DNA of 64,000 nucleotides from Escherichia coli (GCF_030013205.1 NZ_CP122648.1); one strand, 5' to 3'. Counted from the stretch's first letter, positions 17,083-25,794 are shown. Notes: generated by a model from the letters alone, not told the origin. A program made the numbers and translations.

Positions 17083-18159
17083 ATGAAAGCACTGGCTCGG
17101 TTTGGCAAAGCCTTTGGCGGCTACAAGATGATCGATGTCCCACAACCCATTTGTGGCCCGGAAGATGTAGTGATTGAAATTAAAGCCGCGGCAATCTGCG
17201 GCGCAGACATGAAGCACTACAATGTCGATAGCGGTTCTGATGAGTTTAACTCTATCCGCGGCCATGAGTTCGCAGGTTGTATTGCGCAGGTTGGTGAAAA
17301 AGTCAAAGACTGGAAAGTGGGGCAACGCGTCGTGTCGGATAACAGCGGTCACGTCTGCGGCGTTTGTCCGGCCTGTGAACAAGGTGATTTTCTGTGTTGT
17401 ACAGAAAAAGTAAACCTTGGTCTGGATAACAATACCTGGGGCGGTGGTTTTTCCAAATATTGTCTGGTTCCTGGTGAAATTCTCAAAATTCATCGTCATG
17501 CGTTGTGGGAAATCCCTGATGGTGTTGATTATGAGGACGCAGCCGTACTTGACCCTATCTGTAATGCCTACAAATCCATCGCGCAGCAATCGAAATTCCT
17601 TCCTGGTCAGGATGTGGTCGTCATCGGCACTGGCCCACTCGGGCTGTTCTCCGTACAAATGGCGCGGATTATGGGGGCGGTAAATATCGTCGTCGTTGGT
17701 CTGCAAGAAGATGTGGCGGTCCGCTTTCCGGTTGCAAAAGAACTGGGTGCGACGACTGTAGTAAATGGTTCTACCGAAGATGTGGTGGCGCGCTGCCAGC
17801 AAATTTGTGGCAAAGACAATCTGGGACTGGTGATTGAATGCTCCGGTGCCAATATCGCACTGAAACAAGCCATCGAAATGCTCCGTCCGAACGGGGAAGT
17901 GGTACGCGTTGGAATGGGCTTCAAACCTCTTGATTTCTCGATTAATGACATTACCGCCTGGAACAAAAGCATCATTGGGCATATGGCCTATGACTCCACC
18001 TCATGGCGTAACGCTCTCCGGCTATTAGCCAGCGGCGCTATCAACGTCAAACCGATGATCACGCATCGTATCGGCCTGTCGCAATGGCGCGAAGGGTTTG
18101 ATGCGATGGTCGATAAAACCGCAATCAAAGTGATCATGACTTACGACTTTGATGAATAA
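17083..18159 (+). CDS. ydjL: Zn-dependent MDR-family alcohol/polyol dehydrogenase YdjL, 358 aa
   Basis: ORF 17083..18159. Confidence 0.85.
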   Translation: MKALARFGKAFGGYKMIDVPQPICGPEDVVIEIKAAAICGADMKHYNVDSGSDEFNSIRGHEFAGCIAQVGEKVKDWKVGQRVVSDNSGHVCGVCPACEQGDFLCCTEKVNLGLDNNTWGGGFSKYCLVPGEILKIHRHALWEIPDGVDYEDAAVLDPICNAYKSIAQQSKFLPGQDVVVIGTGPLGLFSVQMARIMGAVNIVVVGLQEDVAVRFPVAKELGATTVVNGSTEDVVARCQQICGKDNLGLVIECSGANIALKQAIEMLRPNGEVVRVGMGFKPLDFSINDITAWNKSIIGHMAYDSTSWRNALRLLASGAINVKPMITHRIGLSQWREGFDAMVDKTAIKVIMTYDFDE

Positions 18160-18185
18160 CTACTCTCCTGAAGGAACGTTATCGC

Positions 18186-19565
18186 ATGGAACAGATAACA
18201 AAACCGCATTGTGGTGCACGGCTGGATCGCTTACCGGATTGCCGCTGGCATTCGTCAATGTTTGCTATCGTCGCGTTTGGCTTGCTTGTCTGCTGGAGTA
18301 ATGCCGTTGGTGGCTTGATCCTCGCGCAGCTGAAAGAGTTGGGCTGGACAGATAATTCCACCACTGCCACATTCTCAGCAATCACGACCGCCGGAATGTT
18401 TCTCGGTGCGCTGGTGGGCGGCATCATCGGTGACAAAACCGGTCGCAGAAATGCGTTCATCCTCTATGAGGCCATTCATATTGCCTCGATGGTGGTCGGT
18501 GCTTTTTCACCGAATATGGATTTCCTTATTGCCTGCCGTTTTGTGATGGGCGTTGGGCTGGGAGCTTTACTGGTGACGCTGTTTGCTGGTTTCACCGAAT
18601 ATATGCCCGGTAGAAATCGCGGAACGTGGTCCAGTCGGGTTTCCTTTATTGGCAACTGGTCATATCCGCTCTGTTCATTGATTGCGATGGGACTCACGCC
18701 GCTGATTAGTGCAGAGTGGAACTGGCGAGTACAACTGCTTATCCCTGCAATATTGTCGCTTATCGCTACGGCGCTGGCCTGGCGCTACTTTCCTGAATCC
18801 CCGCGCTGGCTGGAATCGCGCGGACGGTATCAGGAAGCCGAGAAAGTCATGCGGAGTATAGAAGAAGGCGTCATACGCCAGACGGGAAAACCTTTGCCGC
18901 CCGTGGTTATTGCTGATGACGGTAAAGCGCCACAAGCGGTGCCGTATTCAGCCTTACTGACAGGAGTATTACTGAAACGCGTGATATTAGGTTCTTGTGT
19001 GCTGATTGCCATGAACGTTGTGCAGTACACACTAATTAACTGGTTGCCAACGATATTCATGACCCAGGGGATTAATTTAAAAGACTCGATTGTTTTAAAT
19101 ACCATGAGTATGTTTGGCGCGCCATTTGGTATTTTTATTGCCATGCTGGTGATGGATAAAATTCCGCGTAAAACAATGGGTGTGGGGCTATTAATCCTGA
19201 TTGCGGTGCTCGGATATATCTATTCACTGCAAACCAGTATGTTGCTCATAACGCTGATTGGTTTCTTCCTGATTACTTTCGTCTATATGTACGTTTGCTA
19301 TGCCTCGGCAGTGTATGTCCCTGAGATCTGGCCGACAGAGGCCAAATTACGTGGCTCCGGTCTGGCGAATGCAGTAGGGCGAATCAGTGGTATTGCCGCA
19401 CCTTATGCCGTTGCAGTGCTGCTCAGTAGTTATGGCGTAACGGGAGTCTTTATTCTTCTGGGGGCGGTTTCAATTATTGTCGCAATTGCTATCGCAACCA
19501 TTGGAATTGAAACCAAAGGTGTCTCCGTTGAAAGTTTAAGTATTGATGCAGTAGTCAATAAATAA
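18186..19565 (+). CDS. ydjK: MFS sugar-family transporter YdjK, 459 aa
   Basis: ORF 18186..19565; paralogous to ydjE in this window. Confidence 0.85.
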   Translation: MEQITKPHCGARLDRLPDCRWHSSMFAIVAFGLLVCWSNAVGGLILAQLKELGWTDNSTTATFSAITTAGMFLGALVGGIIGDKTGRRNAFILYEAIHIASMVVGAFSPNMDFLIACRFVMGVGLGALLVTLFAGFTEYMPGRNRGTWSSRVSFIGNWSYPLCSLIAMGLTPLISAEWNWRVQLLIPAILSLIATALAWRYFPESPRWLESRGRYQEAEKVMRSIEEGVIRQTGKPLPPVVIADDGKAPQAVPYSALLTGVLLKRVILGSCVLIAMNVVQYTLINWLPTIFMTQGINLKDSIVLNTMSMFGAPFGIFIAMLVMDKIPRKTMGVGLLILIAVLGYIYSLQTSMLLITLIGFFLITFVYMYVCYASAVYVPEIWPTEAKLRGSGLANAVGRISGIAAPYAVAVLLSSYGVTGVFILLGAVSIIVAIAIATIGIETKGVSVESLSIDAVVNK

Positions 19566-19581
19566 TACTGGTGGATTCAAA

Positions 19582-23560: not shown

Positions 23561-24319
23561 GTGGCGGCAAAAGACAGGATTCAGGCAATTAAGCAAATGG
23601 TTGCCAACGATAAAAAGGTGACAGTCTCAAATTTGAGTGGGATTTTTCAGGTAACCGAAGAAACCATTCGCCGCGATCTTGAGAAGCTGGAAGATGAAGG
23701 CTTTTTGACCAGAACCTATGGTGGTGCTGTTTTAAATACAGCGATGTTGACGGAGAATATCCATTTTTATAAGCGTGCTTCATCGTTTTATGAAGAGAAG
23801 CAGCTTATTGCACGCAAGGCACTACCCTTTATCGACAATAAAACCACCATGGCAGCCGATTCCAGTAGTACCGTAATGGAATTGCTCAAATTGTTACAGG
23901 ACCGTAGTGACCTGACGTTGCTAACCAACTCGGCGGAAGCGATTCATGTTCTGGCTCAGTCAGAAATTAAAGTCGTTTCAACGGGTGGGGAACTAAACAA
24001 AAATACACTTTCCCTGCAAGGAAGAATTACTAAAGAGATCATCAGCCGCTACCATGTCGATATCATGGTAATGAGTTGTAAAGGTCTAGATATTAACAGC
24101 GGCGCGCTGGACTCTAACGAAGCGGAAGCTGAAATCAAAAAGACAATGATCCGTCAGGCGACAGAAGTTGCGTTATTGGTTGATCACTCTAAGTTTGATC
24201 GCAAAGCTTTTGTCCAGTTAGCTGACTTTAGTCATATTAATTACATAATAACTGATAAATCACCGGGTGCAGAGTGGATAGCATTTTGCAAAGACAATAA
24301 TATCCAGCTGGTGTGGTAA
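23561..24319 (+). CDS. ydjF: DeoR-family transcriptional regulator YdjF, 252 aa
   Basis: ORF 23561..24319 (GTG start); N-terminal HTH plus sugar-phosphate-binding domain. Confidence 0.85.
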   Translation: MAAKDRIQAIKQMVANDKKVTVSNLSGIFQVTEETIRRDLEKLEDEGFLTRTYGGAVLNTAMLTENIHFYKRASSFYEEKQLIARKALPFIDNKTTMAADSSSTVMELLKLLQDRSDLTLLTNSAEAIHVLAQSEIKVVSTGGELNKNTLSLQGRITKEIISRYHVDIMVMSCKGLDINSGALDSNEAEAEIKKTMIRQATEVALLVDHSKFDRKAFVQLADFSHINYIITDKSPGAEWIAFCKDNNIQLVW

Positions 24320-24435
24320 TTTAAGCACACGTTGTCAATATTATTTGTTCCTGCGCCTGGAAATAAAATGATGATAAAGATGCGGCAAGTGAATTTGCCG
24401 CAATTGCTACCTTTTTAGCAAATCCGAGGCACCTA

Positions 24436-25794
24436 ATGGAACAATATGATCAAATTGGCGCAAGACTGGACCGCTTGCCTTTGGCCCGGTTTCATTATCG
24501 TATATTTGGTATTATAAGCTTTAGTCTGTTATTAACGGGTTTTTTGAGTTATTCAGGCAATGTTGTTTTAGCAAAGCTGGTAAGCAATGGATGGTCAAAT
24601 AATTTCCTCAATGCCGCCTTTACCTCGGCATTAATGTTTGGTTATTTCATCGGCTCTCTTACCGGTGGGTTCATCGGTGATTATTTTGGGCGGCGCAGGG
24701 CTTTTCGCATAAATCTTCTCATCGTCGGTATTGCGGCAACAGGGGCCGCTTTTGTCCCTGATATGTACTGGCTCATCTTCTTTCGCTTCCTGATGGGCAC
24801 AGGAATGGGGGCGCTGATTATGGTTGGCTATGCTTCGTTTACGGAGTTTATCCCCGCGACGGTGCGTGGAAAATGGTCCGCGCGGCTCTCATTTGTCGGT
24901 AACTGCTCGCCCATGTTGTCTGCGGCGATAGGCGTGGTGGTTATCGCTTTTTTTAGTTGGCGGATAATGTTTCTGCTGGGTGGTATTGGCATACTGTTAG
25001 CCTGGTTTCTCTCAGGTAAATACTTTATTGAGTCGCCTCGATGGTTGGCGGGGAAAGGACAAATCGCAGGTGCAGAAAGCCAACTTCGTGAAGTAGAGCA
25101 GCAAATTGAAAGAGAGAAGAGTGTTCGTTTACCCCCGCTTACTTTGAATCAGAGCAACAGCAAGGCTAACGTAATCAATGGTACTTTCTGGCTGCTGTTT
25201 AAAGGGGAAATGTTACGACGTACATTAGTCGCGATTACTGTTTTAATTGCAATGAACATTTCACTTTATACCATCACCGTATGGATACCGACCATATTTG
25301 TTAACTCCGGCATTGATGTTGATAAATCAATATTAATGACTGCTGTTATTATGATTGGCGCTCCGGTAGGAATATTTATTGCGGCATTAATTATTGATCA
25401 TTTTCCTCGTTGATTATTTGGCTCCGCCTTACTTATTATTATTGCCGTGTTAGGCTATATCTATTCAATTCAGACTACAGAGTGGGCGATTTTAATCTAT
25501 GGCCTGGTGATGATCTTCTTTTTATACATGTATGTTTGCTTCGCGTCGGCGGTTTATATCCCGGAGCTTTGGCCAACGCATTTACGCCTGCGCGGTTCAG
25601 GTTTCGTTAATGCCGTCGGACGGATCGTCGCGGTCTTCACGCCTTATGGCGTTGCGGCACTATTAACGCATTATGGGTCAATCACGGTGTTTATAGTGCT
25701 TGGCGTGATGTTAGTGCTCTGTGCGCTGGTTCTCTCCATTTTTGGCATCGAAACGCGGAAGGTGTCATTGGAAGAGATTTCTGAGGTGAATTAA
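24436..25794 (+). pseudogene. ydjE: MFS transporter gene ydjE interrupted by an in-frame TGA at 25411-25413
   Basis: ORF 24436..25413 (325 aa) and ORF 25447..25794 lie in the same frame, separated by a single TGA; 325+1+126 = 452 codons, the length I recall for YdjE; paralogue YdjK is continuous across the aligned position (IPRK). Confidence 0.7.

Follow-up and report, generated by a model that had tools for sequence, protein, structure and literature searches.

Does a nonsense codon in one gene of a catabolic cluster mean that the pathway as a whole is being given up? This question is raised by a 64,000-nucleotide stretch of an Escherichia coli chromosome (GCF_030013205.1, NZ_CP122648.1; hereafter the window), in which positions 17083-25794 carry the ydj cluster, eight plus-strand genes in the order ydjL-K-J-I-H-G-F-E, the last of which, encoding a transporter of the major facilitator superfamily (MFS), is interrupted by a premature stop codon. 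A preliminary description of this DNA had presented the cluster as an incompletely characterized sugar-acid catabolic system with its transporter inactivated in this strain, and had read the nonsense codon as a hint of relaxed selection on the pathway. We consider it very probable that the window holds the known ydj cluster with its operon, its regulator, and the transporter gene ydjK intact and constrained, that ydjE has been made a null allele by one recent, clonal C-to-T change, and that this change is an ordinary background mutation rather than pathway decay.

The premature stop codon in ydjE

The ydjE gene (24436-25794, plus strand) is an MFS transporter pseudogene in the window: its N-terminal open reading frame (ORF) of 325 codons (24436-25413) ends at a TGA at 25411-25413, in the place of arginine codon 326 (R326*). 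Positions 25405-25416 read CCT CGT TGA TTA, compared with CCT CGT CGG TTA in K-12, and since the closest ydjE-intact relative, strain EC556, has CGA at codon 326, a single C-to-T transition at 25411 made the stop. The codon lost is that of the second basic residue in the motif D-x-x-P-R-[RK] of the loop between transmembrane segments (TMs) 8 and 9, a position held by arginine or lysine in 85 of the 85 YdjE and YdjK homologues examined, and the stop removes TM9-12; four hydrophobic segments (residues 327-345, 351-369, 393-411, and 418-436) lie 3' of the stop, and the Sugar_tr profile is matched by the N-terminal ORF only up to position 316 of 452. Judged by the known architecture of MFS proteins, the truncated product would reach only as far as the cytoplasmic loop that follows TM8; having lost TM9-12, it should be non-functional.

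That ydjE still works, either through read-through or recoding of the UGA or as a split transporter assembled from residues 1-325 and a C-terminal piece begun at the GTG at 25447, is very unlikely. A 115-codon ORF does begin at this GTG in the same frame, and homology to Sugar_tr goes on past the stop; however, the GTG has no Shine-Dalgarno sequence, a restart there would cut the TM9 segment (327-345), and in RefSeq the identical ydjE sequence is a pseudogene, flagged 'internal stop'. Moreover, the stop arose in a young clone, at a codon that otherwise invariably specifies arginine or lysine, so a recoding signal cannot have evolved. An error of sequencing or assembly is scarcely credible at all: of the 5,426 complete E. 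coli genomes, 4,304 have the site, and an 81-nucleotide probe centered on the stop is matched at 100% identity by exactly 14 of these, every one of them from a pig or wild boar. Because this context is identical in 14 independent genomes from different projects, and the change is a clean substitution with no homopolymer, the nonsense codon reported in the preliminary description is real.

The lineage that carries it is narrow. Positions 17083-25794 are 100% identical to the pig isolates K_EC180, W13-16, and P15-25, the latter two being O139:H1 strains, and to several strains designated enterotoxigenic E. coli (ETEC), and share 95-99% identity with most other E. coli; the host lineage of the window is a pig-associated ETEC/O139:H1 clone. 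The gene is intact in EC556, EC571, and EC581.

What the stop disables is also narrower than had been proposed. The earlier wording, that 'the transporter' is inactivated, is correct for the outlying ydjE but not for ydjK (18186-19565, plus strand), the operon's own transporter gene, which is intact, encodes 459 amino acids, and differs from K-12 at two of them; since ydjK is intact, the wording overstates the effect. Both proteins match MFS and Sugar_tr in Pfam and are 44% identical to each other, and YdjK is a complete two-domain MFS protein of 12 TMs, which YdjE is not. The best NCBIfam model for both is TIGR00895 (aromatic acid/H+ symport), at 148 bits for YdjK and 129 for YdjE, below the cut-off of 418.

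Selection, loss, and the conserved core

Compared with the ydj cluster of K-12, that of the window has the same eight genes in the same order and orientation at the same site between yeaC and pncA, and differs in its ydjE, which carries R326*, W157C, and ten further substitutions. Nucleotide identity per gene to K-12 is 96-99.2% over the eight genes. The seven intact genes diverge at 0.8-2.0% of nucleotides, with two to six amino acid differences each, a synonymous divergence (dS) of 0.03-0.07, and a ratio of nonsynonymous to synonymous divergence (dN/dS) of 0.04-0.16. The corresponding figures for ydjE are 4.0% of nucleotides, a dS of 0.14, and a dN/dS of 0.076. This divergence, about twice that of the other seven genes, suggests a recombination breakpoint near ydjF/ydjE, and the low dN/dS means that ydjE was constrained until very recently. 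The W157C substitution (24904-24906), which alters a conserved GNW motif, was considered as an earlier disabling change and set aside: 22 YdjE orthologues all have tryptophan 157, but cysteine stands at this position in about ten YdjK-like paralogues, and the window shares W157C with EC556, whose ydjE is intact, so that no clear damage can be ascribed to it.

The comparison with EC556, a sister strain, gives a measure of what has changed most recently. Over the 64 kb of the window only 11 positions differ, of which three fall inside the 9.2-kb ydj region; the expected number there is about 1.6, and the excess is not significant. The three are 16966 in the ydjL promoter, 20617 (S346G, the penultimate residue of YdjJ), and 25411, the stop itself. 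At 16966, inside a TTGTGAT repeat, EC556 has an A where a T is otherwise invariant across genera; the base of EC556 is therefore the derived one, not that of the window, and could be a regulatory variant of EC556. With three differences seen against about 1.6 expected, and one of them derived in EC556, the idea that mutations cluster in this region was rejected.

The cluster as a whole comes and goes within the species. Of the 5,426 complete E. coli genomes, 5,425 have its flanking genes and about 4,300 the cluster itself; in about 20% of complete genomes the segment corresponding to approximately 16712-25881 is missing, and 157 bp of unrelated sequence, containing an element like a repetitive extragenic palindrome (REP), lie between yeaC and pncA. 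A REP-like palindrome (CTGGCCTACAATG...CATTGTAGGCCAG) at 25845-25880 adjoins the right boundary of this segment in the window; a sub-threshold Rfam match to naRNA4 at 25784-25850 overlaps only its first bases, and the Rfam scan of 16300-26100 returned nothing at or near the gathering score. Some other genomes have insertion sequence (IS) elements of the IS3 or IS1 type or partial deletions in the cluster, and in O157:H7 Sakai (NC_002695.2) IS629 has taken the place of the 5' end of ydjE, an independent inactivation. Because Citrobacter, the Klebsiella oxytoca group, Raoultella, Yokenella, and Intestinirhabdus keep the cluster at the same site, beside msrB and pncA-ansA-sppA, its presence is ancestral and its absence is a loss; a reported prevalence that varies by phylogroup, at about 30% in B1 (PMC9602453), agrees with this picture. 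The ydj cluster is thus conditionally dispensable in E. coli, and the loss of one accessory gene is unsurprising.

That ydjE is such an accessory emerges from a scan with YdjI, taking one genome per species, which returned 148 relatives, the best 80 of whose loci were used for comparison of the module. Among these 80, the order L-K-J-I-H-G-F is kept in Enterobacterales, Lachnospiraceae, Clostridium, Blautia/Mediterraneibacter, Erysipelotrichaceae, and Anaerococcus, as well as in Veillonella, Megamonas, Atopobiaceae, Synergistaceae, and Gilliamella, with YdjI identities of 74-98% across all groups that keep it, Enterobacterales included. Typical identities to E. coli at the non-Enterobacterales loci, below which a few divergent loci fall, are 74-87% for YdjI, about 70-86% for YdjL, 55-80% for YdjJ, 50-75% for YdjK, 56-69% for YdjG, 45-73% for YdjH, and 40-62% for YdjF. 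The ydjE gene adjoins the module in all of the approximately 22 Enterobacterales loci that extend past ydjF; outside this order it is absent but for YdjE-like neighbors in Clostridium puniceum (53% identity), Veillonella (46-48%), and Gilliamella (34-35%). Judged by these gene neighborhoods, ydjE is an accessory of the Enterobacterales that lies outside the core module.

Other lineages have accessories of their own. At 28 loci, ydjL and ydjK are separated by a gene resembling that of D-allulose-6-phosphate 3-epimerase (AlsE), with a score of 257 bits where the cut-off is 271; a gene of the sodium:dicarboxylate symporter family lies downstream at 28 non-enterobacterial loci, and Liv-type ATP-binding cassette (ABC) permease genes occur at 12 loci, ten of which are without ydjK. 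The modules of gut Firmicutes, for example those of Schaedlerella arabinosiphila and Lachnospiraceae bacterium M18-1, thus share the L-K-J-I-H-G-F order with E. coli but differ from it in these extra epimerase-like, dicarboxylate-symporter-family, and Liv-type ABC genes and in usually missing ydjE. Recent horizontal transfer was considered on the basis of base composition and rejected: the GC content of the cluster in E. coli is only modestly low (46.3% against 50.4% in the flanks) and in Firmicutes follows that of the host (32-50%), so any transfer is old, and the conservation reflects strong constraint on the enzymes together with old transfers.

These observations bear on the proposal that selection is relaxed on the whole pathway, in which the clone would no longer meet the substrate and the ydjE stop would be the first step in the decay of the cluster. 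The dispensability of the cluster, its clean absence from about a fifth of complete genomes, and the damage seen in other strains, Sakai among them, are what such a process would draw on, and two changes in the cluster, ydjJ S346G and ydjE R326*, are derived in this lineage. Against this, all genes of the cluster but ydjE, seven in number, are intact and have low dN/dS, the stop is one of only 11 differences from EC556 with no excess in the ydj region, and the gene that it interrupts is outside the conserved core. We therefore regard pathway-level relaxation as unlikely and do not follow the preliminary description on this point.

A somewhat less likely proposal still is that the loss was adaptive, with strains that lack YdjE gaining an advantage in certain niches of the animal gut or the farm, for instance because the uptake of a toxic compound or the leakage of a metabolite is stopped. 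The independent inactivations by different mechanisms (the nonsense codon here, IS629 in Sakai, IS elements or deletion elsewhere) and the fixation of the allele in a clone sampled by several studies would fit such a benefit; yet the allele is found in only 14 of the 5,426 genomes, parallel point mutations were not seen, and clonal hitch-hiking explains the fixation equally well. A ydjE deletion strain was among the most ornidazole-sensitive in a knockout screen (PMC9405208), which also tells against a benefit; since the knockout is more, not less, sensitive, loss driven by this antibiotic was rejected. As to the function of YdjE, metabolomics of knockout and overexpression strains tentatively linked it to the export of 3-phenyllactate and acetophenone (PMC10971958).

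Gene content and a proposed route

The order, orientation, and site of the eight genes are those of K-12 b1776-b1769, with msrB-yeaC to the left and pncA-ansA-sppA to the right in the RefSeq annotation of an identical sequence, and ydjE is the only one of the eight whose frame is broken. The families assigned to them beforehand are supported throughout, the coordinates matching and Pfam agreeing for every gene. YdjL (17083-18159, 358 amino acids) and YdjJ (19582-20625, 347 amino acids, with the lineage-specific S346G) are intact Zn-dependent medium-chain dehydrogenases/reductases (MDR), presumably of the polyol/sugar type, each with an ADH_N (GroES-like) and an ADH_zinc_N domain; tested against models of known specificity (Tdh, IolM, IdnD, and GatD), they reach none, with best scores of 218 and 205 bits, respectively, against cut-offs of 380-550. 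YdjG (22444-23424, 326 amino acids) is an aldo-keto reductase (PF00248) that scores 626.9 bits, above the cut-off of 550, with NF049922, the NCBIfam equivalog for the NADH-dependent methylglyoxal reductase YdjG. YdjF (23561-24319, 252 amino acids, GTG start, intact) is a regulator of the DeoR/GlpR family with an N-terminal HTH_DeoR and a C-terminal DeoRC domain in Pfam, and matches the AgaR, SrlR, and GlpR models below their cut-offs.

YdjI (20646-21482, 278 amino acids) and YdjH (21487-22434, 315 amino acids) each have two residues unlike K-12. YdjI is a class II (metal-dependent) aldolase (PF01116, 298.9 bits, residues 10-276) that passes the ketose-bisphosphate aldolase subfamily model TIGR00167 (324.5 bits against 215.6) and matches the crystallized K-12 YdjI (PDB 6OFU) over its full length (residues 1-278, E=7.6e-187), but lies under the curated cut-offs of every equivalog model tested, which included fructose-bisphosphate aldolase and the GatY/KbaY tagatose-bisphosphate aldolase. 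YdjH is a sugar kinase of the PfkB family (PF00294, 246.4 bits, residues 5-300) that matches the solved YdjH structures (PDB 3H49/3IN1) over its full length (E=1.5e-205) and does not reach the NCBIfam equivalog cut-offs for ribokinase, IolC, or KdgK. The YdjH and YdjI proteins of K-12 were reportedly characterized by Huddleston and Raushel in 2019, and their RefSeq product names in K-12 follow L-glycero-L-galacto-octuluronate.

The gat (galactitol) and aga (N-acetylgalactosamine) operons of kinase and class II aldolase genes, with DeoR-family repressors and the tagatose-bisphosphate aldolases GatY/KbaY, offer the nearest frame for comparison. Like them, ydj combines a transporter, a dehydrogenase, a kinase, a class II aldolase yielding dihydroxyacetone phosphate (DHAP), and a DeoR/GlpR-type regulator; unlike them, it relies on MFS uptake rather than a phosphotransferase system and has two MDR dehydrogenases together with an aldo-keto reductase. 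YdjI itself differs from GatY/KbaY both in the equivalog cut-offs that it does not reach and in its substrates in vitro, where YdjH and YdjI prefer long-chain monosaccharides with a carboxylate end, of 7-9 carbons for YdjI (PMC9602453). The best of these substrates, L-glycero-L-galacto-octuluronate, is described in the same source as having no known natural abundance, which bears out the earlier statement that the physiological substrate is not settled, and a second source has YdjI joining DHAP and L-arabinuronate to give an octuluronate-1-phosphate (PMC11194214). YdjG reduces methylglyoxal (10.1101/557934).

In the route that these families suggest, YdjK would import an acidic long-chain sugar or polyol, YdjL, YdjJ, and YdjG would carry out its redox conversion to a 2-ketose, YdjH would phosphorylate the 2-ketose at C1, and YdjI would cleave the product to DHAP and an aldehyde acid, which for the best in vitro substrate would be L-arabinuronate. 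YdjF would repress the operon in laboratory media and be released in the gut by a pathway intermediate.

Among the neighboring genes, ansA (26539-27555) is intact in the window and identical to that of EC556, so the ansA frameshift annotated in K_EC180, considered as a sign of general decay, was rejected as such; that tag is probably specific to the K_EC180 record, as either a change or an error. Farther away, ynjB differs by one base (near 42485) from that of EC556, where it is annotated as frameshifted, and appears intact in the window by gene length, and collinearity with EC556 places an IS3-like IS1397 element at about 33500-34900, between topB and gdhA.

Regulation and meaning of the cluster

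The gaps between successive genes from ydjL to ydjG are 26, 16, 20, 4, and 9 bp, so the spacing of 5-30 bp given earlier was essentially right, and with the conserved promoter block upstream they point to the single ydjLKJIHG operon that had been proposed and that is so named in a preprint (10.1101/557934); the ydjG-ydjF and ydjF-ydjE gaps are 136 and 116 bp. The same preprint reports a ydjL promoter that is inactive in culture and becomes active during passage through the mouse gut (10.1101/557934). The cluster is therefore not silent under every condition, and no substrate or regulon has been assigned to the whole operon; silence throughout, or an assignment of that kind, would have told against the preliminary description.

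Consensus promoter and terminator matches inside the cluster are no more frequent than chance. Footprinting across 17 Enterobacterales sequences found two blocks, 16950-17045 and 23443-23525, conserved from Escherichia to Budvicia and Enterobacillus. The first is the ydjL promoter/operator block (16950-17045, plus strand), with [TC]TGTG[AT][AT] repeats at 16952, 16960, and 16993, a TTGACC resembling a -35 element (17014-17019), and, around 17036-17042, a weak -10 region. The second contains the ydjF regulatory region (23451-23522, plus strand), with the same repeat at 23451, 23460, and 23473, followed by a sigma70 promoter, TTGAAA-17-GATAAT, at 23494-23522, whose hexamers have been given as a constitutive RpoD promoter of ydjF (PMC3946193). 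Each block holds three same-strand copies of the repeat, six in total, compared with only 21 plus-strand copies in the 64 kb, for a motif that was defined post hoc; the repeats are candidates only for the YdjF operator. A site for CRP in the ydjL promoter was considered and rejected: the second half-site of TGTGATCTGAGTTGTAA is poor, and direct TTGTGA repeats read better. In the ydjF-ydjE gap, two adjacent stem-loops (24381-24421, plus strand; -17.9 kcal/mol, z = -2.2) are predicted, the first of which (24381-24402) is kept from genus to genus in the Enterobacterales, with compensatory changes; it is probably a terminator or attenuator of ydjF, with an antisense terminator also considered, there being no good U-tract directly 3' of it on the plus strand.

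Several points weigh against the account of an intact, constrained pathway that has lost one accessory gene by chance. The low dN/dS values relative to K-12 speak of past constraint, and a relaxation begun only in this clone is still compatible with them. Behind the proposed route stand family assignments and in vitro experiments that cover two of the six enzymes; the substrate preferred in those experiments is not known in nature, and only YdjG and YdjI reach curated NCBIfam cut-offs. The operator repeats of YdjF are candidate sites, and both its binding to them and its effector are putative. Finally, the metabolomic and ornidazole data do not firmly tie YdjE to the ydj pathway.

With these points weighed, the ydjE allele of the window is an ordinary lineage-specific pseudogene in a known accessory gene, in a cluster whose essentials were already known and annotated. 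What is new is descriptive, namely exactly how the allele arose and which clone carries it, the core shared across phyla with its accessories, and the candidate regulatory sites, and its value lies in the fact that ydj is one of the K-12 catabolic clusters still without a physiological substrate. The 14-genome R326* pig clone and the ydjE-intact strains EC556, EC571, and EC581 provide natural near-isogenic pairs, and the conserved core, the variable accessories, and the gut-induced promoter are handles for finding the inducer. A bolder reading, to which we give a small chance only, albeit a larger one than to any of the alternatives above, is that the ydj module is a cross-phylum gut-microbiome pathway for a gut metabolite, its enzymes unusually constrained, as seen in the high identities of YdjI and YdjL although base composition has shifted toward that of each host, with YdjE as an accessory acid transporter whose repeated loss is adaptive rather than neutral; if this were true, the AlsE-like 3-epimerase and dicarboxylate-symporter-family genes of the Firmicutes modules would limit the range of substrates to be considered.

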